In this document: piece after piece, positions 11,736 through 22,776 of the stretch
Numbering within the stretch: position 1 is the stretch's first letter
Layout: each line of letters opens with the position of its first letter
Assembly (NCBI GenBank): GCA_025054855.1
Contig: JANWZS010000004.1
Span: 22,966-54,965, forward strand
Length of the DNA: 32,000 bases
Direction: 5' to 3'
From: Candidatus Nitrosocaldus sp.
GTDB taxonomy: Archaea; Thermoproteota; Nitrososphaeria; Nitrososphaerales; Nitrosocaldaceae
Notes under the pieces: generated by a model
The model's input: only the letters and a program-made list of their open reading frames with translations
Databases searched by the model: none
What the model was told of the DNA's origin: nothing
Program-made: the position numbers and the translations under genes

Positions 11736-12059
11736 ATGATGACCCCGCTGCGAAACATAATATATGAGAAGGTAAGGAACGCAGGGAGCATAACCGATGT
11801 AGAACTCATCAATACCCTCACAAAGGAGGGGCTGGACTTTACGAGGGCTGAACTCAACAAGGTACTGCTCGACCTGGAGATACTGGGGCTCGTGCGAATC
11901 GGATGGGTAAGCAAGGATAAGAGGAGGATAGAGGTCAGGGATGTGGGAGAGAGGGAGGCTAGGAGGAGAGGAGGGGGGGATGAGGAGGAGGGAGAGGGAG
12001 TGGCCGTGGATGAGAGGAGGGAGGGGGCTGGTTATGGCGATGAGGAAGGAGAGCCATAA
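11736..12059 (+). CDS. Small winged-helix-like protein with an acidic/Gly-rich C-terminal tail
   Basis: The N-terminal ~70 aa has a wHTH-like pattern (ITDVELINTLTKEGLDFTRAELNKVLLDLEILGLVRI). The tail is RRRGGGDEEEGEGVAVDERREGAGYGDEEGEP. No family was recognised. Confidence 0.5.
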   Translation: MMTPLRNIIYEKVRNAGSITDVELINTLTKEGLDFTRAELNKVLLDLEILGLVRIGWVSKDKRRIEVRDVGEREARRRGGGDEEEGEGVAVDERREGAGYGDEEGEP

Positions 12060-12149: not shown

Positions 12150-13058
12150 TCATACAGTTATCAGGAGCGGTAATGGGTAGTGGTATATGGAGTCGAGCAT
12201 CAGTGCTATGAACACTATAGCAAGGTACGGGCTTGAGAGCTTGTAAGTGCGCCATGCAACCTCCTTGGTCGTGTTCCTGACGAGCATGAGGTTGTAGTAT
12301 AGGAGCATGACTCCAGCAGCGATAGATGCTATAAGGTACACCACTCCTAGACCTAGGAACGCTATGGCGATGGAGTATGGCAGGAGCACTATGGTATTCA
12401 CGAGTATGTACATGGCAGCCTTCTTATCACCAACGAGTACAGGGAGCATGGGCACTCTAGCGTTTGCATACTCCTCCCTGCCGACTATGGAGAGGCACCA
12501 GAAGTGAGTCGGCGTCCAGAGGAAGACTATCAGCCCTACGAGGAAGCCCAGAGGGTCTAGGCTGCCTGTTGCTGTAGCCCACCCAGCATATGATGCGCAG
12601 CTACCAGCGAACCCCCCTATCACTATGTTGGATGTATGCCTCCTCTTGAGCCACATCGTGTATATGACCACGTAGAAGAGTATGCCCAGAGCTATGAACG
12701 ATGCTGCCACGGGGTTTAGTGTGAAGACTGCTATAACCACTGAGGCTATGCTCATACCCAGACCGTAGGCTAGCGCACTCCTAGCCCTCATCACGCCAGA
12801 TGGTATTGGCCTCTTGCTTGTCCTACTCATGAGGAGATCTATATCCTTATCGTAGTAGTGGTTGAGCGCACTCGCTCCCATGGATGCCATGCTCCCAGCG
12901 AGGAGCAGGAACGCTACATCCCATGCACTCGCATTCCACCTGCTCGCTGCAAGGAGTGATGTTATGGCCACAAGATCAAGTACCGCAACTATCCTCAACT
13001 TCGATATCGCTAGGTACCCCCTTAACCCCAACCTGTCTAGCATTCGAGGCCCCAGCAT
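12150..13058 (-). CDS. ctaB: Protoheme IX farnesyltransferase (heme O synthase)
   Basis: A UbiA-family polytopic protein. It has NHYYDKDIDLLMSRTSKRPIPSG and a second Asp-rich region, which is the typical CtaB/CyoE pattern. Confidence 0.9.
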   Translation of the reverse strand: MLGPRMLDRLGLRGYLAISKLRIVAVLDLVAITSLLAASRWNASAWDVAFLLLAGSMASMGASALNHYYDKDIDLLMSRTSKRPIPSGVMRARSALAYGLGMSIASVVIAVFTLNPVAASFIALGILFYVVIYTMWLKRRHTSNIVIGGFAGSCASYAGWATATGSLDPLGFLVGLIVFLWTPTHFWCLSIVGREEYANARVPMLPVLVGDKKAAMYILVNTIVLLPYSIAIAFLGLGVVYLIASIAAGVMLLYYNLMLVRNTTKEVAWRTYKLSSPYLAIVFIALMLDSIYHYPLPLLITV

Positions 13059-13119
13059 TTAATCGTTAAGTGTATTATATACACCATCCACATTCATCTA
13101 TAAAGATTTTTTATCTCGT

Positions 13120-14151
13120 GTGGAGTATAATAGGGAGGTGCCGAGGAGCTACTCCTTTGAGGAGGTCAAGCAGAGGATAATAGATGCACTGAGGCAGTCC
13201 GAGTCTGGACTCTCTGGTATAGAGATCGCAGAGAAGACAGGTATAAACAGGGTTACCGTGACCAAGTACCTGAACATACTAGAGACCATGGGCATAATAC
13301 GGAGGAGGAGCATGGGCCCTGTGAATATATGGTACATACAGCATGGCGTAGACCTGAGCAGCAAGGACCTTCTGGAGTTACAGCAGGCATACATGGATGT
13401 GCTCTTCGCATACGACGAGGATAGGGCTAGAACACTCCTGCTCAATGCCATACACTCCAACATAGACCCCATGCTTCTGATCAGCGACGTTGTGATACCA
13501 ACGGTCAACACCGCTGGGGAGCTGTATGCTAGGGGGAGGATGGGTGCCATGGATATCATGCTCGTGACCAATCTGGCGATAGAGTCACTGGAGCTGATAA
13601 AGTTCAACGCCGAGAGGGGAGAGATCAAGAGGGATGCACATGCTGTATTCATAAGCATGCATGAGGATGGTAGGGATGTGATCGATATGAAGGCTGCATC
13701 CATAGCATTCTACATAAAGGGCTGGAATACGTTCCCATTGGGTAACGTAGCACAGCAGACAGGGATATTCTTCGATATAGACATCGTTAGGTTCATCAAC
13801 AGGATATGGAGGGATAGGGGGAGGAGGGGTATGGTGGTACTCTACATCTCCCCTGCAAGGGGCGAGATTGCAACGCTGAATGAGCTGATAAGGTCTGTCA
13901 AGGAGAAGCTTGAGAGGAGCATGCTTGTGATAGCTGGGGGTAAGGCACTGGATAGGCCTGAGGGTAGGGAGAAGGATGGAGATACAGATAAGGGTATGGA
14001 GAAGGAGGTGACGAAGGAGAAGGAGAGGCATGGGGGCAGAGGCGGGGACTTGAAGGATGCAGGGTATGCACCATACATAGACTACTATGCAGCAGATGTG
14101 GTGAAGGCAGTGGAGTGGGCTGAGAGGATGTACAGGAGCCTGAGGCTCTGA
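13120..14151 (+). CDS. Putative transcriptional regulator: N-terminal wHTH plus B12-binding-like (cap helices plus Rossmann) domain
   Basis: The wHTH segment is GLSGIEIAEKTGINRVTVTKYLNILETMGIIRRR. It is followed by a helical segment resembling the B12-binding_2 cap (DPMLLISDVVIPTVNTAGELYARG). Then comes AVFISMHEDGRDVIDMKAASIAFYIKGW, resembling the DxHxxG cobalamin loop, with His181 and Gly184 kept and Asp replaced by Ser. It starts at a GTG. Confidence 0.6.
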   Translation: MEYNREVPRSYSFEEVKQRIIDALRQSESGLSGIEIAEKTGINRVTVTKYLNILETMGIIRRRSMGPVNIWYIQHGVDLSSKDLLELQQAYMDVLFAYDEDRARTLLLNAIHSNIDPMLLISDVVIPTVNTAGELYARGRMGAMDIMLVTNLAIESLELIKFNAERGEIKRDAHAVFISMHEDGRDVIDMKAASIAFYIKGWNTFPLGNVAQQTGIFFDIDIVRFINRIWRDRGRRGMVVLYISPARGEIATLNELIRSVKEKLERSMLVIAGGKALDRPEGREKDGDTDKGMEKEVTKEKERHGGRGGDLKDAGYAPYIDYYAADVVKAVEWAERMYRSLRL

Positions 14152-14722: not shown

Positions 14723-16498
14723 CTACGTGGTACCCTCATTCTCCCTGCCAAGTGTATCCAGGATGCTCTTCTCTATCCTTCTATTGACCACTATGAAGGT
14801 ATCGAGCAGGAGGTATGCGAATACGGAGACCGCTATTATGGATGCTGGAAGCACTACCTCCATGTTACCGAATGCTAGGGAGGGTACGACGAAGGATGTC
14901 AGCATGAGCACCACTATGCTTAACACTATATTCCTTATCACCCTGTGCAGATTATCCATCCTGCGTGTAACTACTGGATACCTAGCAAGCCTCCTCTGTA
15001 TGGACTCGAATATTGTATCGGTTATCTCCCCTGCCCTACCAAACACATTGAGTAACGGATAGACTATGGCACCAACCATGAACACAAGTTTGAATATGTT
15101 GTAGGGCAGTATCTTGAGGGAGGAGAATGTGTTGTAGAGCAGTGACAGGAATCCATCGCTGAAGAGTATTATAGTTATCATCGCTATGATTATCACTATG
15201 TTTATCAGTAGCCTTGAGAACATCTTCCCTACCCTTAACGCACTATCCTTCTGCTGTATATTCTGGAGTATGCCCCTGGTGAGCCTTGCAGGTGCCTCCA
15301 GCATGCTGAACAACCTCGTGGGGATGATGCTGCTTGGATCTACTATAGTAGGTAGTATCTTTGCGAACAGGGGTATAACGAATATGCTTGCTAGGGAGAT
15401 GAGCATGGTCACTGGCATGATGGATTCCCTGGTTGCATTCAGGTCTATCCCCTGCTTCGCCATGACGAACGATAACTCGCCTCTAGGCATCATCATTATC
15501 CCAACCGTAGACGCACCATCCCTACCATACCCAGCTACACTAGCAGCTATGAAGTTACCTACGAACTTGCTCAGTATTGCAGCAATGACCAGTGGTATAG
15601 CCATGACCAGATTATCTAGTATAGCAGCGACGCTTATCAGCATACCTATTGAGATGAAGAATACGGTACCGAAGAGGTCCCTGAGTGGGATGACCTTCTC
15701 GGTTATTATGCCTGCTCTAGGGGATGATGCTATCATCATGCCCATGAGGAACGCACCTATGGCCATGCTCAACCCCAGGTAGTTGGCGAGTAGAGCCAGA
15801 CCGAAGCCCATGACTATCGCAAGGAGCAGTGGGGCCTCATCCAGATCTAGTCTGGATACGTACTCTATTAGCCTGGGTACCGCCTTCAGTCCTATTATGA
15901 GAGTAACTATGAAGAATGTTATGCTCTGCCCTATTATGAGCCCTATACTGAATACATCCGCTGTACCGCTCTTCACTATGCCTGGGAGTATCACAAGCAG
16001 TATTATCGAGAAGATATCCTCCACTATACTTACCACTATGATGAACTCCCCCTCCTTGGTGTGGAGTATACCAGCATCCTTGAGTAGCTTGAGTACTATG
16101 GCAGTGCTCGTGATGCTTATTATCCCCCCAAGGTATATCGCCTCTATATTGTTGAAGCCTATGGCAATGGCAACCATGAAGCCTAGAAAGAATGCCACGC
16201 CTATCTCCACAACCGCACCTATGAGCGCTACACCCCCTACCCTCCTGAACCTGTTCACATTCAACTCAAGCCCGACCACGAAGACCAGGAGTATAACGCC
16301 TATATCTGCAAGTAGCGTAACTATCTGCACATCCGTAACTATCTTGAACCCATAAGGCCCTATGGCCATACCGACGAGTATGAAGCCTATGACTGGTGGT
16401 AGCCTGGCCTTCCTGGCAGATAGGCTACCGAGGATGGCAGAGCCTAGTAGGATGGTGAGCAGGAGCATGAACTCCACTGAGGATATAACATCAACCAT
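14723..16498 (-). CDS. Cation:proton antiporter (CPA2/Kef-type Na+/H+ exchanger family) with an extra C-terminal membrane domain
   Basis: 591 aa. The N-terminal ~390 aa show the typical 12-13 TM Na_H_exchanger pattern (LLLTILLGSAILG...LPPVIGFILVGMAIGP). The C-terminal ~200 aa has more TM helices in place of a KTN/TrkA domain. Confidence 0.85.
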   Translation of the reverse strand: MVDVISSVEFMLLLTILLGSAILGSLSARKARLPPVIGFILVGMAIGPYGFKIVTDVQIVTLLADIGVILLVFVVGLELNVNRFRRVGGVALIGAVVEIGVAFFLGFMVAIAIGFNNIEAIYLGGIISITSTAIVLKLLKDAGILHTKEGEFIIVVSIVEDIFSIILLVILPGIVKSGTADVFSIGLIIGQSITFFIVTLIIGLKAVPRLIEYVSRLDLDEAPLLLAIVMGFGLALLANYLGLSMAIGAFLMGMMIASSPRAGIITEKVIPLRDLFGTVFFISIGMLISVAAILDNLVMAIPLVIAAILSKFVGNFIAASVAGYGRDGASTVGIMMMPRGELSFVMAKQGIDLNATRESIMPVTMLISLASIFVIPLFAKILPTIVDPSSIIPTRLFSMLEAPARLTRGILQNIQQKDSALRVGKMFSRLLINIVIIIAMITIILFSDGFLSLLYNTFSSLKILPYNIFKLVFMVGAIVYPLLNVFGRAGEITDTIFESIQRRLARYPVVTRRMDNLHRVIRNIVLSIVVLMLTSFVVPSLAFGNMEVVLPASIIAVSVFAYLLLDTFIVVNRRIEKSILDTLGRENEGTT

Positions 16499-17488: not shown

Positions 17489-17527
17489 CCCTCATCCCTC
17501 CCTCACCCCCTACCTATCCCCTAACCC
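17489..17527 (-). other. G-quadruplex motif on the minus (PAC2 sense) strand, i-motif pattern on the plus strand
   Basis: The plus strand has six C-runs of 3-5 nt separated by loops of 4, 1, 3, 7 and 3 nt (CCCtcatCCCtCCCtcaCCCCCtacctatCCCCtaaCCC). The motif straddles the PAC2 stop codon (17521-17523). Confidence 0.6.
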
Positions 17528-18234
17528 TCCTCTCCGCCTTCCTCCTCCCTCCTCCTAGCAAGGCTCTCATCTACACCCTCTGCAAGCCTCTCAAGCTCAT
17601 CGAGGCTACCGAACCTTAGGTATGTGAGCCTCTCGAGTGCCTCTACTATGCCCTTGGCTGCTCTATACTGTGGTATCCTGGGATCATCTATCTCACCGTA
17701 GAGCCCTATACCGTTTATGCCGTTCATCTTCGCAAAGCCGAGTATGAGGCCATTGAACCCAGTTATGAGCGATGAACCGTGTGTAGGATGGAGCCCAACC
17801 CTCGTTATGCTATCGGTCAAGGCTGGGTTGGTGGTGGTAACGAGGACCCTAGGCCTCTTGCCCACTGCTCTATCAGTCAGGAACGCACCTACTGTGTAGA
17901 TGAACTGCACGGAGTACATCTTTGCAACATCTATAACATCCTGGCATAGCATGTAGAGGTCGCTACTAGACTCTGGCTGACCAACGGAGCCCCCAAATAG
18001 TATGATCCTCTCAGCGTACCTATACTCCCACATCACCTGCTCAAACTCTATGTACCCTCCCTTATCGACTACGTATGGTGGGTAATGTGCATACACAACC
18101 CTGAACGGCCTTGTGTTGAGCCTCTTGTTGATGAAGTCTATCACTATGCTCCCCACATTGCCCATATCCTGCATCGCTGCTATCATTATCGGGCTACTAC
18201 CAACATCTGGCTCTAGAAGCTTCTCAAAGTGCAT
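17521..18234 (-). CDS. PAC2-family proteasome assembly chaperone (PbaA/PbaB-like)
   Basis: IMIAAMQDMGNVGSIVIDFI... and GLHPTHGSSLITGFNGLILGFAKMNGINGIGLYGEI match the archaeal PAC2/COG1938 pattern. It has an acidic C-terminal tail, RRREEEGGEEG. Confidence 0.8.
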   Translation of the reverse strand: MHFEKLLEPDVGSSPIMIAAMQDMGNVGSIVIDFINKRLNTRPFRVVYAHYPPYVVDKGGYIEFEQVMWEYRYAERIILFGGSVGQPESSSDLYMLCQDVIDVAKMYSVQFIYTVGAFLTDRAVGKRPRVLVTTTNPALTDSITRVGLHPTHGSSLITGFNGLILGFAKMNGINGIGLYGEIDDPRIPQYRAAKGIVEALERLTYLRFGSLDELERLAEGVDESLARRREEEGGEEG

Positions 18235-19296: not shown

Positions 19297-19671
19297 TCAC
19301 CTCATCCCCCCTATCATGCCAGGGGCTTTGGGCATGCTCCTGTACTCCTTCACTATATGCACACCTGGCTCAGCGGTCACAACTACATACTCCCTGTTTG
19401 CATCATCCCTTGGCGAGAGCGATACCTTCTCCCCAGGCTTTATCCTTGGTATGAAGTCCTTGTACGTACCATAATCTACCACGACATTGGTTATATCGTT
19501 CCTCCCAGTGTTGGTGAGGATCACCCTGTATATATCCATGACATCTATCTTGTCCTTGAACGCATCGACATCCAGCGCATAATCCTGGTTGGAGTAGGGC
19601 ATGAGCATAAGGAATGCAGTAAGCATGGCAGCACCCATGGCACCTGCACCTGCGATGAGGTAGATCAGCAC
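19297..19671 (-). CDS. Hypothetical N-terminally membrane-anchored protein with a ~95-aa beta-rich (Ig/CARDB-like) domain; neighbour of the AMO locus
   Basis: GTG start. The TM helix is LIYLIAGAGAMGAAMLTAFLMLM. It is followed by RVILTNTGRNDITNVVVDYG...IKPGEKVSLSP, a pattern reminiscent of CARDB-type beta-sandwiches. The overlapping plus-strand ORFs look like shadows. Confidence 0.55.
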   Translation of the reverse strand: MLIYLIAGAGAMGAAMLTAFLMLMPYSNQDYALDVDAFKDKIDVMDIYRVILTNTGRNDITNVVVDYGTYKDFIPRIKPGEKVSLSPRDDANREYVVVTAEPGVHIVKEYRSMPKAPGMIGGMR

Positions 19672-19785
19672 AACATACTATCCACAAGGTTAGATTTAAC
19701 ATTTATCATTCCCTAGCATACATGCTACCATATTACACCTGATCCGACCATTATAGTTATATTTAAGTTAGTTTTAGTATATGTG

Positions 19786-19983
19786 ATGATGAAGAACTAC
19801 AGCATGCTTGCGGTACTGGCCATACTGGCCCTTGCAGCAGTAGCAGCAGTCATGCCAAGTGCGTATGCACAGACCTGGGGTAGACCCGACTCTATGATCA
19901 TTGCAGGACTACCGCTGATAGTCGGCCTAGGCACTGGTATAGTGTACTTCATAGTGATATCTGCAAGAAGGTCCAAGAAGTAG
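19786..19983 (+). CDS. Hypothetical small secreted/single-pass membrane protein (65 aa); neighbour of the AMO locus
   Basis: It has a Sec-type signal peptide (MMKNYSMLAVLAILALAAVAAVMPSAYA-Q), a 7-aa linker, a Gly-rich TM (MIIAGLPLIVGLGTGIVYFIVI) and a basic tail (SARRSKK). A TATA-like TATATTTAAG lies 18 nt upstream and an oligo-T run lies downstream. Confidence 0.5.
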   Translation: MMKNYSMLAVLAILALAAVAAVMPSAYAQTWGRPDSMIIAGLPLIVGLGTGIVYFIVISARRSKK

Positions 19984-19992
19984 ATCCTATAT

Positions 19993-20017
19993 CTCTTCTT
20001 CTTTTCTTATTTTGTTT
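19993..20017 (+). terminator. Oligo-T/pyrimidine-rich terminator-like tract after the 65-aa ORF
   Basis: CTCTTCTTCTTTTCTTATTTTGTTT begins 10 nt after the stop codon. Archaeal termination typically occurs at oligo-T runs. Confidence 0.45.
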
Positions 20018-20102
20018 ACTCAATGGCTATATGTACACATTGTACATGTGTATGGTAGCCTATGATGGTATGCAAGATCACTTTTTGCATAACAACCAAC
20101 TG

Positions 20103-20114
20103 AAATAACAAAAA
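20103..20114 (-). terminator. Oligo-T terminator-like tract after amoA
   Basis: The minus strand reads TTTTTGTTATTT starting 17 nt after the amoA TAA. Confidence 0.45.
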
Positions 20115-20130
20115 GATTGTGGGTATGTGT

Positions 20131-20784
20131 TTAGTCCCACTTGCTCCAGGCAGCGGCCCACCTGTACGTCCATGTGTTCAGCTTTGCACCCAAGGCAGCC
20201 ATCGGTACACTTATAACCGCACTTATACCTGCTGCCAACGCCACTGGACTGTTGTAGAACTTGCCCACCTGAGGCTCTATCGGCGTTAGGTATGCTGGGA
20301 GCGTTGGTCTAGGATACTTGAATGCCATCTCTAGTGGATCATGTACAGTTAGCAGGTTTATCATGTTGAAGAGTGGCATGGACATGCCTACCAGGGAGCC
20401 TCCTATCAGTATAGCTGCATGCTTGTTCCTCCTTGTTGCCCAGTATGATAGGTCGAGGAGCATGGCACTCGGTATCCAGACTGGGACGATCATGAAGTCG
20501 TATGGATAGCCTAAGCCTCCTATCCAGGCCCACTTTGCAACCCAGGTGTATATGGTCATTATTGTAGCGTAGTACGTTGCTGTACCAGGCACTCCTGTGA
20601 ATAGCATGTAGTAGATGGCACCAACCACGAGCATGGTTGCCTGGCTAAGGTTGAAGATCACGAAGGAGGTCCACATCCAGTCGGAGTAGAATATGTAGTC
20701 TCCAGCGTTGATGGTCAGCAGCGTCGAGTTCACCGCAACTACCACTATGAACAGGTAGTGTATTGTGCGTCTAATCCAGACCAT
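20131..20784 (-). CDS. amoA: Ammonia monooxygenase subunit A, archaeal type
   Basis: 217 aa. MVWIRRTIHYLFIVVVAVNSTLLTINAGDYIFYSDW...MLFTGVPGTATYYATIMTIYTWVAK...YPYDFMIVPVWIPSAMLLDLSYWATRRNKH...MAFKYPRPTLP...PIEPQVGKFYNSPVA is near-identical in pattern to thaumarchaeal AmoA sequences I know. Confidence 0.97.
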   Translation of the reverse strand: MVWIRRTIHYLFIVVVAVNSTLLTINAGDYIFYSDWMWTSFVIFNLSQATMLVVGAIYYMLFTGVPGTATYYATIMTIYTWVAKWAWIGGLGYPYDFMIVPVWIPSAMLLDLSYWATRRNKHAAILIGGSLVGMSMPLFNMINLLTVHDPLEMAFKYPRPTLPAYLTPIEPQVGKFYNSPVALAAGISAVISVPMAALGAKLNTWTYRWAAAWSKWD

Positions 20785-20804
20785 TAGAATAGTGTACTAT
20801 GTCC

Positions 20805-20816
20805 ATATATATAAAA
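20805..20816 (-). promoter_or_regulatory. TATA-box-like element for amoA
   Basis: The minus strand reads TTTTATATATAT and ends 20 nt upstream of the amoA ATG. This implies a leaderless or very short-leader mRNA. Confidence 0.5.
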
Positions 20817-20849
20817 CTTACTCCAGGTTAGTGCTAATAAATTAGTAGA

Positions 20850-20865
20850 ATAAAAATAAAATTAA
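20850..20865 (-). terminator. Oligo-T terminator-like tract after amoX
   Basis: The minus strand reads AATTTTATTTTTATTC shortly after the amoX TAG. Confidence 0.4.
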
Positions 20866-20880
20866 GAAATATTTATAATT

Positions 20881-21141
20881 CTATGGGATGGCTGGCTTCT
20901 CCATGGCAACTTTCCAGATGAAGATGAATCCAAAGGCAATGATCACGGTCAGCACGGTCAGCGCATACATCCCAGAGCTGAATGGGTATGCCCATGAATA
21001 GTATGTGAACCCTACCCAGACACCAAATGCTGTTGCTGCCCACGCCATTATCGCTCCGATTATGTACAGACCCTTCATGTGCTCAGTCCTCTTGCCAATC
21101 ATCCTCTCTATCTCGTCCTTGGGCGCCTCCTTCTTCGACAT
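20881..21141 (-). CDS. amoX: AmoX (small 2-TM protein encoded between amoA and amoC in ammonia-oxidising archaea)
   Basis: Its position between amoC and amoA matches the conserved AOA arrangement. It has two TM helices (LYIIGAIMAWAATAFGVWVGF and MYALTVLTVIIAFGFIFIW). I prefer the ATG at 21141 (MSKKEAPKDE...), because CTTTAATAA lies 23 nt upstream. The track ORF extends to 21165. Confidence 0.8.
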   Translation of the reverse strand: MSKKEAPKDEIERMIGKRTEHMKGLYIIGAIMAWAATAFGVWVGFTYYSWAYPFSSGMYALTVLTVIIAFGFIFIWKVAMEKPAIP

Positions 21142-21164
21142 TAAAGAATAATGAAACGAATGCA

Positions 21165-21173
21165 TTATTAAAG
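21165..21173 (-). promoter_or_regulatory. TATA-box-like element for amoX
   Basis: The minus strand reads CTTTAATAA, about 23 nt upstream of the ATG at 21141. Confidence 0.45.
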
Positions 21174-21197
21174 TTTACTTTTGATCTGACAAGGGGT

Positions 21198-21214
21198 AAC
21201 AAAAAAAGAAAAGG
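21198..21214 (-). terminator. Oligo-T terminator-like tract after amoC
   Basis: The minus strand reads CCTTTTCTTTTTTTGT, about 65 nt after the amoC TAA and just upstream of the amoX TATA. Confidence 0.45.
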
Positions 21215-21277
21215 AGTTGCCCATCAGGGCGGTTGCAATTTGTTTACCTTGCTTGCTACGCCTTCTGCTTATGGTAC

Positions 21278-21841
21278 TTATGGTATGCTCCTGCTGTACA
21301 GCTTGCCCTCCAGAGCGAGCTTGTACATCTCTGCAACGTATGGGTTGCTTGGCGGCGTCTCCATCCCGAGCTCTACCATCCTCACGTACAGCCTGACCAC
21401 GTAGGCTAGTGCACCTATGAATGCCACGACGACACCCATGTTGAATGACCAGTGGTTGGGTACTGCGAATACCTCCTCCACGAACCAGAAGTGCCACATC
21501 TCGTTTATACCTATGGTGAACATGGTACCTAGGTAGCCTATGATGGTCATCTTTATACCAGTGTTGACGGTGTTGTTTGGACCCCTCATCAGTGGCACCC
21601 TTCTGTCATATATCATTATTGCACCCCAGCCTAGTGGTAGCGCAACGAAGTGGGAGTAGAGCCACCAGTGCGCTGGTGTGAATGCACTGTCCCTTATACT
21701 GGTCTGGTGCAGTGAGCCGTCGACGAAGTTGTCAACCTCAACGCTCGCTGCGACTGAGCCCATCACTATGACCATTATCAGTATCTTCTTCAGCCTCTGC
21801 ATCTCAACCTCCTTTGGTAGTAGTGCTGGCATCTGAGCCAT
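21278..21841 (-). CDS. amoC: Ammonia monooxygenase subunit C, archaeal type
   Basis: 187 aa. WWLYSHFVALPLGWG...GINEMWHFWFVEEVFAVPNHWSF keeps the His-x12-His spacing and the preceding acidic/amide residue of the AmoC/PmoC metal site. The overall pattern is that of thaumarchaeal AmoC. Confidence 0.95.
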   Translation of the reverse strand: MAQMPALLPKEVEMQRLKKILIMVIVMGSVAASVEVDNFVDGSLHQTSIRDSAFTPAHWWLYSHFVALPLGWGAIMIYDRRVPLMRGPNNTVNTGIKMTIIGYLGTMFTIGINEMWHFWFVEEVFAVPNHWSFNMGVVVAFIGALAYVVRLYVRMVELGMETPPSNPYVAEMYKLALEGKLYSRSIP

Positions 21842-21870
21842 ACCGCTTCATCCTCTGCTACTCATGAGGA

Positions 21871-21881
21871 GTATATCTATC
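21871..21881 (-). promoter_or_regulatory. Possible TATA-like element for amoC
   Basis: The minus strand reads GATAGATATAC, ending about 29 nt upstream of the amoC ATG. It is weaker than the other amo TATA candidates. Confidence 0.3.
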
Positions 21882-21945
21882 TACTGATGTAAGATATCGA
21901 ATCAGTTCTAGAGATATCATCATATCATTCCCATTTAAGACAATT

Positions 21946-22026
21946 AATAATCGAAAATAGACTATACCTTTCTAAATAATCGATCCATGTTATGATGAAT
22001 CGATTTGATTAACACTGAAATCAAAT
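21946..22026. promoter_or_regulatory. Candidate operator array in the amoC/amoB divergent region: AATAATCGA x2, ATGAATCGA, and an 8-bp inverted repeat
   Basis: The exact 9-mer AATAATCGA occurs at 21946-21954 and 21975-21983. A related GATGAATCGAT is at 21994-22004, containing the palindrome AATCGATT at 21998-22005. The inverted repeat ATTTGATT(n8)AATCAAAT is at 22003-22026. Confidence 0.35.
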
Positions 22027-22110
22027 ATATTCGAGCCATCATCGGATTTATTGTTTATAAGTCTGATGTGAGATCATTCTATATATAAACCTAGAAGGGG
22101 ACTGAAATGT

Positions 22111-22122
22111 AAAAATATATAT
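22111..22122 (+). promoter_or_regulatory. TATA-box-like element for amoB
   Basis: AAAAATATATAT ends 24 nt upstream of the amoB ATG (22147). Confidence 0.5.
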
Positions 22123-22146
22123 CTGTGTTAGTACAAGATTCTAATA

Positions 22147-22776
22147 ATGAAGGTAACGCATGTAGCATTGCTGACAGCAGTGGCAGTGGTGCTGGTACTC
22201 GGCTCATTTGCGCCATTGATGAAGGATGCGTTTGCACACGGTGTCCAGGCACAGCTGCAGAGCAGGTTCGTAAAGATAGAGGATGAGACGTTCTCAACGT
22301 TCAGGGTAATAACCAAGCAGGAGTATGCAAACAGGACAGGTCTAACGCTGGAGCAAGTCGATGCGATGGGCTGTGACCCAAGGAGGGGAGACATACTGAT
22401 AGTAACTGGTAGACTTGTAAGCCAGGTCAACAAGGAGCTGAGGGCATGGATATCCCTCTTCAACGAGTCATCTAACGCTGGCAATAGGTGGGAGTTCATA
22501 TCAAGGGAGCCACCAGGTAACGTCTTCGATATACCTCCAGGCGGGGAGGTCCCATACAGGTTATGTGTCTCTGCACTTGAGCCTGGTACATACCATACCC
22601 ATACCCAGCTGAACGTGGCTACTGTTGGTCCAGGTCTCGGTCCAGGGGCAACAGTGGTGGTAGAGGGCGAGCCAACCATGAAGCCTATGTCAGTAGGCAA
22701 CATAGCATACCAGACCATACTGATAGCAATAGGCCTAGCGATATCATTCGCAACAAGACCATGGCAGGTCATATAG
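22147..22776 (+). CDS. amoB: Ammonia monooxygenase subunit B, archaeal type (single cupredoxin domain plus C-terminal TM)
   Basis: The signal peptide ends AFA|HGVQAQLQSRF, which exposes an N-terminal His as in the PmoB/AmoB CuB site. The H-x-H motif is in EPGTYHTHTQLNVATVGPGLGPG. The C-terminal TM is IAYQTILIAIGLAISFA. Confidence 0.95.
   Translation: MKVTHVALLTAVAVVLVLGSFAPLMKDAFAHGVQAQLQSRFVKIEDETFSTFRVITKQEYANRTGLTLEQVDAMGCDPRRGDILIVTGRLVSQVNKELRAWISLFNESSNAGNRWEFISREPPGNVFDIPPGGEVPYRLCVSALEPGTYHTHTQLNVATVGPGLGPGATVVVEGEPTMKPMSVGNIAYQTILIAIGLAISFATRPWQVI

Follow-up and report, generated by a model that had tools for sequence, protein, structure and literature searches.

A B12-fold module with degenerate cobalamin signatures in a predicted winged-helix regulator of ammonia-oxidising archaea

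A stretch of 32,000 nucleotides from Candidatus Nitrosocaldus sp. (assembly GCA_025054855.1, contig JANWZS010000004.1, positions 22,966 to 54,965), hereafter the window, encodes a protein in which a winged helix-turn-helix (wHTH) DNA-binding domain precedes a sensor module of the B12-binding type. The original prediction took this protein for an archaeal analogue of the bacterial CarH/LitR photoreceptor-repressors, sensing cobalamin status or light through a lower-ligand histidine, His181, in an ammonia-oxidising archaeon. Does the module still carry what is needed to sense cobalamin or light in this way, and if not, what might a DNA-binding protein with a B12-type fold be doing in ammonia-oxidising archaea (AOA)?

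Our analysis shows that the sensor module is truly homologous, by profile and by fold, to CarH-type cobalamin-binding sensor modules. Judged from the sequence, however, its cobalamin signatures are degenerate: the ligand His and the Wx9EH motif are gone, and apparently the GG motif alone survives. For this copy we find no support for sensing through His181, and cobalamin or light sensing has given way to a better-supported reading of the protein. The gene is in essence a single-copy signature gene of AOA, not present in the non-oxidising relatives sampled. The explanation we favour, with moderate confidence, is that of a one-component regulator, a signature of AOA, whose B12-fold module has been repurposed in the manner of CarA and would no longer function as a His-on cobalamin or light sensor. 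By analogy with the B12-binding domain of Myxococcus CarA, the module would act as an oligomerisation and regulatory scaffold, holding the wHTH domains in place on a conserved operator, with possible modulation by a ligand at the remodelled interface between cap and Rossmann subdomains (Y136, W202, G208, D219, D221). Because the recognition helix is conserved, such a regulator would be expected to serve one conserved target set across AOA, and because the gene lies near the ammonia monooxygenase (amo) cluster in three of four AOA families, the ammonia-oxidation module would be the leading candidate for that target.

Fold and cofactor motifs

The N-terminal domain matched the Pfam models HTH_11 (E 2e-7) and HTH_24 (E 2e-6) over residues 16-61, numbered here, as in the original prediction, from the GTG at 13120; IclR/MarR-type wHTH models also matched the N-terminus, and no bacterial MerR-type HTH model did so in the Pfam scan. 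The cap (residues 89-160) was recognised by PF02607 (B12-binding_2), which gave 33.7 bits where its gathering threshold is 23 (E 4e-8), and this model scored above its cut-off in all clades tested bar one Nitrosopumilaceae-like representative. PF02310 (B12-binding), the model for the Rossmann subdomain, found no match in the query even at permissive E-values; it reached 20-26 bits against a gathering threshold of 32.1 in the His-bearing orthologues and was detectable in no other members. The only NCBIfam matches, to corrinoid proteins of the methanol and methylamine type, were weak and partial. An AlphaFold2 (AF2) model built from a 34-sequence family alignment, with a mean predicted local distance difference test score (pLDDT) of 81 and a predicted template-modelling (TM) score of 0.71, placed the wHTH at residues 13-73, a four-helix bundle at 84-163 and a five-stranded Rossmann-like domain at 173-278 and 318-342, and left the insert at 279-314 below a pLDDT of 50, as predicted disorder. 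The winged helix (~20-65), the helical B12-type cap (~85-160) and the Lys/Glu/Gly-rich C-terminal insertion that had been read from the letters are thereby borne out, and the Rossmann-like segment stands as a fold, by AF2 and Foldseek, but not as a Pfam match. The insertion is longest in the window's copy among the aligned sequences and a weak repeat of the hexamer GGAGAA lies within it at 13998-14026. In this genome several proteins have tails or inserts of low complexity rich in Glu, Gly and Arg, examples being the C-terminus of a 107-residue open reading frame (ORF; 11736-12059, +), that of a PAC2-family protein (17521-18234, -) and the regulator's insert, which suggests a lineage-wide tendency.

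The relationship of the module to cobalamin-binding proteins rests on both structure and profile. Foldseek returned cobalamin-binding modules for all of the top 50 matches in the PDB, the best being 8jbs (E 3e-9, TM 0.80 by target), the B12-binding domain of a Chloracidobacterium MerR-family photoreceptor, and further matches including photocobilins, CarH, MtmC, LitR, MetH and AerR; the Swiss-Prot models gave the same picture, with corrinoid proteins and CarH. In addition, hhalign of the family profile against the nearest canonical modules gave a probability of 99.8% (E 4.5e-28) over 216 columns.

Within this fold, the residues that would hold the cofactor have changed. The string S-M-H-E-D-G, which had been proposed as a D-x-H-x-x-G lower-ligand motif, does occupy residues 179-184, but the true register lies five residues further downstream: hhalign set the canonical E-x-H-x-x-G on D183-x-D186-x-x-D189, leaving His181 five positions upstream, and an ungapped alignment to MtaC (2i2x) agrees. 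Since the register lands on these three aspartates, the ligand His is replaced by Asp186. His181 itself is not conserved even within the genus, where orthologues at 68-75% identity have S, Y, N or G in its place, and is on this comparison a lineage-specific loop residue. In the cap, Y136 aligned with the Trp of Wx9EH and I146-M147 with its Glu-His, and Wx9EH was absent from every AOA member examined. The GG motif is kept (G273-G274), the SxT/V position reads S244-P-A with a spacing from the loop ~11 residues longer than canonical, and both GG and SxT are lost in the Nitrosopumilaceae- and Nitrososphaeraceae-like clades. The combination of ExHx2Gx41SxV/Tx22-27GG with Wx9EH defines CarH homologues (PMC8156234), and by these motifs the window's protein is not one of them; CarA, which lacks Wx9EH, works independently of B12 (PMC8156234). 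Of the proposed likeness to CarH/LitR, what stands is therefore the joining of a DNA-binding domain to a B12-type module, and what does not is the pair of CarH-defining motifs.

These findings bear directly on the idea that the protein is a CarH/LitR-like adenosylcobalamin photoreceptor that explains the light sensitivity of AOA, which we now regard as the least probable of the readings weighed and as very nearly implausible. It is true that the best structural matches (8jbs, photocobilins, CarH, LitR) are light-dependent B12 regulators and that the closest sequence outgroups carry both Wx9EH and ExHxxG, so that the ancestor may have been a photoreceptor. The protein at hand, however, misses both motifs, as all AOA members examined miss Wx9EH; its DNA-binding domain is not of the MerR type, its His181 is variable, and the organism comes from hot-spring metagenomes. 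The sequence was found in DNA metagenomes only, and in no RNA run.

Distribution and descent in ammonia-oxidising archaea

The closest homologues come from Nitrosocaldus-type metagenome-assembled genomes (68-72% identity over 98% of the length), more distant ones from Nitrososphaera and Nitrososphaeraceae, and one copy is present in the genome of the window, which is 1.56 Mb in size and 98.9% complete. When 301 genomes sampled across the class were surveyed with the family profile, 227 matched, and the regulator was present in all four ammonia-oxidiser families. Its distribution follows that of amoA and of cbiC, a gene of corrin synthesis. In f1, the Nitrosocaldus-like family of the window, all three genes were found in 8/8 genomes; in the Nitrosopumilaceae-like f2, the regulator was found in 173/181, amoA in 175/181 and cbiC in 177/181; in the Nitrososphaeraceae-like f3, the figures were 39/39, 37/39 and 39/39; and in f5 each gene was found in 4/4. 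None of the three was found in f4 (0/3 genomes) or f6 (0/1), and the other families gave two weak hits for the regulator and none for amoA or cbiC. Phyletic profiling was tried as a way of separating an ammonia-oxidation link from a cobalamin link and set aside, as it cannot discriminate between genes of the same pattern. The f3 genus g31 had two family-profile matches in all seven listed genomes (G195, G217, G229, G248, G271, G274, G289), which suggests a lineage-specific duplication.

When 1.84 billion representative proteins were searched exhaustively with the profile, only 43 clusters matched at E<=1e-30, so the family is a narrow one. Its members go under the database names 'hypothetical protein', 'HTH domain-containing protein', 'ArsR family', 'B12-binding domain-containing protein' and 'methanogenic corrinoid protein MtbC1', the last being the IMG auto-annotation of some members. 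The last two names should not be taken to show cobalamin binding, and the MtbC1 label is misleading. A full-text literature search found no study of the family, and a search by the Nitrosopumilus maritimus locus tags next to amoA returned nothing, a weak null given that the tags were derived from gene order.

When a maximum-likelihood tree was built from the sensor module, with the outgroups as root, f1, f2 and f3 each formed a clade, f2 and f3 were sisters (support 96/97), the window's protein grouped with f1 (98/96), and the f5 sequences, the His-bearing ones among them, sat on short branches near the root. The gene tree follows taxonomy, and the family is vertically inherited. Common to all AOA members are two insertions after strand 2, one of 6 and one of 5 residues, which form the loop N-V-x6-F-F-D-I-D. 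Two f5 genera, g27 and g32, retain ExHxxG, SxT and GG (E-T-H-x-I-G ... S-V-T ... G-G) with the spacing ExHxxG-x52-SxT-x27-GG, the first spacer being 52 against a canonical 41, and within AOA ExHxxG survives in these two genera only. Beyond the family, the next-best matches in the whole library were proteins of ~300 residues with an XRE-type HTH, B12-binding_2 and B12-binding, and B12 modules without a recognised DNA-binding domain, and most of the outgroup proteins checked carry Wx9EH and ExHxxG. As the nearest outgroups carry both motifs and the His-bearing f5 sequences lie near the root, the ligand His is, on sequence grounds, ancestral. It disappeared on at least three occasions (f1, the common line of f2 and f3, and within f5), while the gene itself remained universal and single-copy.

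The wHTH is the best-conserved region of the protein, with Y11, G30, E35, R44, T46, K49, Y50, L51, G66 and W71 invariant across the four AOA families and a between-family identity of 43-63%, against 22-51% for the sensor module. Such a difference in rate, together with the degenerate cofactor motifs, would fit a module that is a ligand-free relic, in a protein that takes no signal and binds DNA constitutively in an architectural or housekeeping role. We nevertheless consider a relic improbable: the module is kept at full length in every lineage across the AOA radiation, its predicted fold is confident and compact, and G208, D219 and W333 are invariant and P127, Y136, W202, D221 and D321 nearly so.

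Genomic neighbourhood and candidate targets

In the window, amoA lies 6 kb from the regulator. The linkage is tighter in f2, where amoB, amoC, amoX and amoA were found 2-5 kb from the regulator in eight of the nine loci examined, in the fixed order amoA, D12-type methyltransferase, a divergent gene for a 128-residue protein, regulator, AhpC/TSA-like protein; ~46 of ~50 same-contig pairs of regulator and amoA were no more than 8 kb apart, most at 1.8-4 kb, with two exceptions at 25 and 35 kb. With distances of 11 and 23 kb in f5, linkage to amoA (2-23 kb) is seen in three of the four AOA families, which suggests that the ancestral position of the regulator was near amo. The linkage is suggestive and not proof, because related genomes are non-independent observations. 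In the literature searched there was no described transcription factor for the amo genes, and a paper on the transcriptome of Nitrososphaera viennensis under copper limitation made no mention of B12 or cobalamin, and none of the regulators in its list could be linked with this family.

Several points weigh against a repurposed scaffold directed at the amo genes. The linkage is absent in f3, where the regulator lies from 13.6 kb to hundreds of kb from amoA, and the gene order elsewhere may be inherited without a functional meaning. A by-eye comparison of the upstream regions of orthologues from different families revealed no common motif. The phyletic profile fits a cobalamin link equally well, since cbiC shares the family-level distribution of the regulator. 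A B12 domain can hold a corrinoid with no His as its ligand, as happens base-off/His-off on the Rossmann-type B12 domain of the corrinoid iron-sulfur protein and of many radical SAM enzymes that depend on B12, and for this reason cobalamin or light sensing keeps a small share of the probability. Finally, the cap helix (ELYxRG...E) and the strand-2 loop are conserved around the former cofactor site, which argues for some ligand and not a pure scaffold.

One rival is a sensor of cobalamin status that binds corrinoid non-canonically, base-off/His-off or via another residue, a reading that we consider doubtful yet a good deal more credible than the photoreceptor. In its favour are the homology of the module to true cobalamin binders, a cap that Pfam still recognises in nearly all clades tested, the conserved residues around the former site, members with the complete ExHxxG..SxT..GG, the co-occurrence with cbiC at family level, and a scan of the window with Rfam that found neither a riboswitch nor any other RNA family. 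Archaea are not known to have B12 riboswitches, and if the reading were true they would gain a protein-based gene regulation by cobalamin. The repeated loss of the ligand His with retention of the gene speaks against it, as do the loss of GG and SxT in two clades, the eleven-residue insertion in a loop that normally lines the nucleotide-tail pocket, and the genomic context: cbiC was at least 190 kb from the regulator in the nine complete genomes compared, and the regulator's neighbours in all families are unrelated to cobalamin. In f3 these are an ACT-domain protein, argininosuccinate synthase, a spermidine-synthase-like protein and an AP-endonuclease-2-fold protein, with no consistent functional theme.

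We also speculate, as an unlikely extension, that the family is a signature regulator of archaeal life by ammonia oxidation, a fusion of a CarH-type B12/light module with an archaeal wHTH that the AOA ancestor acquired or put together near amo and that was then rewired to control amo and respiratory genes. The remodelled pocket (D219, D221, Y136, W202) might then read another signal, such as redox state, NO, copper or an intermediate of ammonia oxidation, and the regulator would act through an operator conserved across all AOA, with the His-bearing genera of one family as living intermediates that still bind cobalamin.

A different tetrapyrrole is suggested by the divergent neighbour, ctaB, whose assignment as heme O synthase in the original prediction is confirmed by TIGR01473. 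SCHIC domains show that a B12-type fold can switch tetrapyrrole, and a SCHIC-like module that binds heme or another tetrapyrrole could regulate heme O synthase and respiratory genes. AerR (7te2) and a Rhodobacter capsulatus AerR-type protein are among the fold matches, and ctaB is the divergent neighbour in two other f1 genomes examined as well as here. The pairing is thus real, but it is conserved only within the Nitrosocaldus-like family, one of four; the sensor has no family-wide His or Cys to ligate a heme iron, and the similarity to AerR is weaker than that to CarH-type modules, so that we hold this explanation to be very unlikely, below even the relic.

The proposed ORF is confirmed, with only its start revised. 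Orthologue N-termini of the form MPK(S/R)YS align with GTG 13138 and not with GTG 13120, and a TATA-like element at 13098-13113 (+), kept in congeners, lies only ~21 nt before 13120; to judge from these alignments and this spacing, GTG 13138 is probably the true start. A perfect palindrome, GTGTAT-TAT-ATACAC (GTGTAT-N3-ATACAC), adjoins the ctaB start at 13070-13084. As a TATA-like TATATAA lies inside it, upstream of ctaB on the minus strand, it may be just the ctaB promoter. It was considered as an operator of the regulator and dropped in view of this overlap and of its lack of enrichment within the window, where 3 matches with up to 2 mismatches compare with 1.7 expected. A genome of genus g2 (L015) carries the variant ATGTAT-TAT-ATACAT, also a perfect palindrome, and the g1 congeners carry versions matching at 5/6.

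Some neighbours are of interest in their own right. The highly conserved 128-residue protein (L016:5538-5924, -) is divergent from the regulator in 9/9 Nitrosopumilaceae-like loci, with equivalents in L017-L019, L024-L027, L029 and L023 and one f5 copy at 63% identity. Its N-terminus, MPKAGFKSITVSE.VY, is ribbon-helix-helix-like by eye, its C-terminus has a Cys-rich motif (CxxC..C.H), and it matched no Pfam or NCBIfam model; in the window's genome its only counterparts are two distant paralogues, both encoded on other contigs (L030, L031). A homologue of D12-class N6-adenine DNA methyltransferases (PF02086, E 2e-64; L016:4384-5244, +) lies directly downstream of amoA in all 8 Nitrosopumilaceae-like loci that include amoA, a positional conservation that is rare for orphan-looking methyltransferases. 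A Na+/H+ exchanger-family gene (window 14723-16498, -) is separated from the regulator by one small ORF in the window's genus; in the g2 genome and two f5 genomes (L023, L028) it is the large ORF that comes next. This is a second conserved local synteny, unconnected with cobalamin.

Table 1. Features of the regulator and its surroundings, in window positions
Feature	Position	Strand	Basis and remarks
ctaB (heme O synthase), divergent neighbour	12150..13058	-	TIGR01473, 270.9 bits against a cut-off of 210.3
Divergent intergenic region, ctaB/regulator	13059..13137	.	TATA-like element and palindrome; putative promoter roles
wHTH/B12-fold regulator ORF	13120..14151	+	343 aa from GTG 13120; 337 aa from GTG 13138
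wHTH DNA-binding domain	13156..13347	+	Residues 13-76; Pfam HTH_11/HTH_24, AF2 model, conservation
Four-helix cap subdomain	13369..13608	+	Residues 84-163; Pfam B12-binding_2, AF2 model
Rossmann-like subdomain, strands 1-4	13636..13953	+	Residues 173-278; AF2, Foldseek, hhalign
Loop after strand 1 (H181-E-D-G-R-D-V-I-D189)	13660..13686	+	Canonical register is D183, D186, D189
Extended loop after strand 2 (N209...F-F-D-I-D221)	13744..13782	+	Family-specific insertion relative to canonical B12 domains
Disordered Lys/Glu/Gly-rich insertion	13954..14061	+	Residues 279-314; Nitrosocaldus-like clade only
Last strand and C-terminal helix of Rossmann-like subdomain	14071..14145	+	Residues 318-342
Ammonia monooxygenase cluster	19297..22772	-	Pfam; tblastn to Nitrosopumilaceae-like amo loci; 6 kb downstream of regulator
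amoX-like ORF	19297-19671	-	
amoA	20131-20784	-	PF12942, E 3e-107
amoC	21278-21841	-	
Putative amoB	22128-22772	-	No Pfam match; 44-50% identity to the amoC-flanking ORF of Nitrosopumilaceae-like loci

Taken as a single-copy, AOA-confined regulator with a near-invariant recognition region, placed near amo in three of four families, the protein offers a testable entry point. The family also documents a cofactor-binding sensor module in the course of being repurposed, and it supplies natural 'before' and 'after' proteins, namely the outgroups with both CarH motifs, the two AOA genera with the His motif, and the other lineages in which it is lost.

Comparison with known systems

The bacterial CarH/LitR proteins (PDB 5C8D, 3WHP and the 8JBS-type MerR-family protein) share the layout, in which a four-helix cap and a Rossmann-type module come after an N-terminal DNA-binding domain, and the modules match closely (hhalign 99.8%; Foldseek E 3e-9 to 1e-5). 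The window's protein differs in having an archaeal host and an archaeal-type wHTH in place of MerR, in lacking Wx9EH, in the replacement of the ligand His by Asp186, and in S244-P-A at the SxT/V position, 11 extra residues after strand 2 and the Lys/Glu/Gly-rich insert. Among the proteins checked, the closest carriers of a DNA-binding domain outside the family (E 7e-14 to 4e-9) are the metagenome proteins P0164, P0192, P0211 and P0229, which have the same domain order in about 290-306 residues, with an XRE-type HTH (HTH_3). Their DNA-binding domain is of the Cro/C1 type, unlike the regulator's wHTH, and they retain ExHxx(G/A/P); P0164, P0192 and P0211 carry Wx9EH, and P0229 does not. These proteins resemble CarH-style sensors with a non-MerR DNA-binding domain.

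The corrinoid proteins MtaC, MtmC, MtbC and MttC share the cap and the Rossmann fold (TM 0.71-0.79), and MtaC is the best sequence-profile match in the PDB (E 1e-4); they have no DNA-binding domain, keep the canonical DxHxxG and serve as methyl carriers and not as regulators. AerR/PpaA, of the SCHIC type, use the B12-binding fold in regulation with an altered ligand chemistry (7te2, E 1.2e-5), but they act on CrtJ/PpsR with no DNA-binding domain of their own, and their ligating His has no conserved counterpart in the regulator.

By analogy, the closest functional parallel is CarA of Myxococcus xanthus, a B12 module without B12 dependence, which keeps the fold of the B12-binding domain without Wx9EH, as the window's protein does. 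CarA differs in its MerR-type DNA-binding domain, where the regulator has a wHTH, in its antirepressor CarS, and in keeping a canonical ExHxxG, lost in the window's protein, with which it can still bind B12. Nevertheless, CarA uses its B12-binding domain for dimerisation and not for cofactor sensing (PMC8156234), and it is this use of the fold that we propose the AOA regulator may share.

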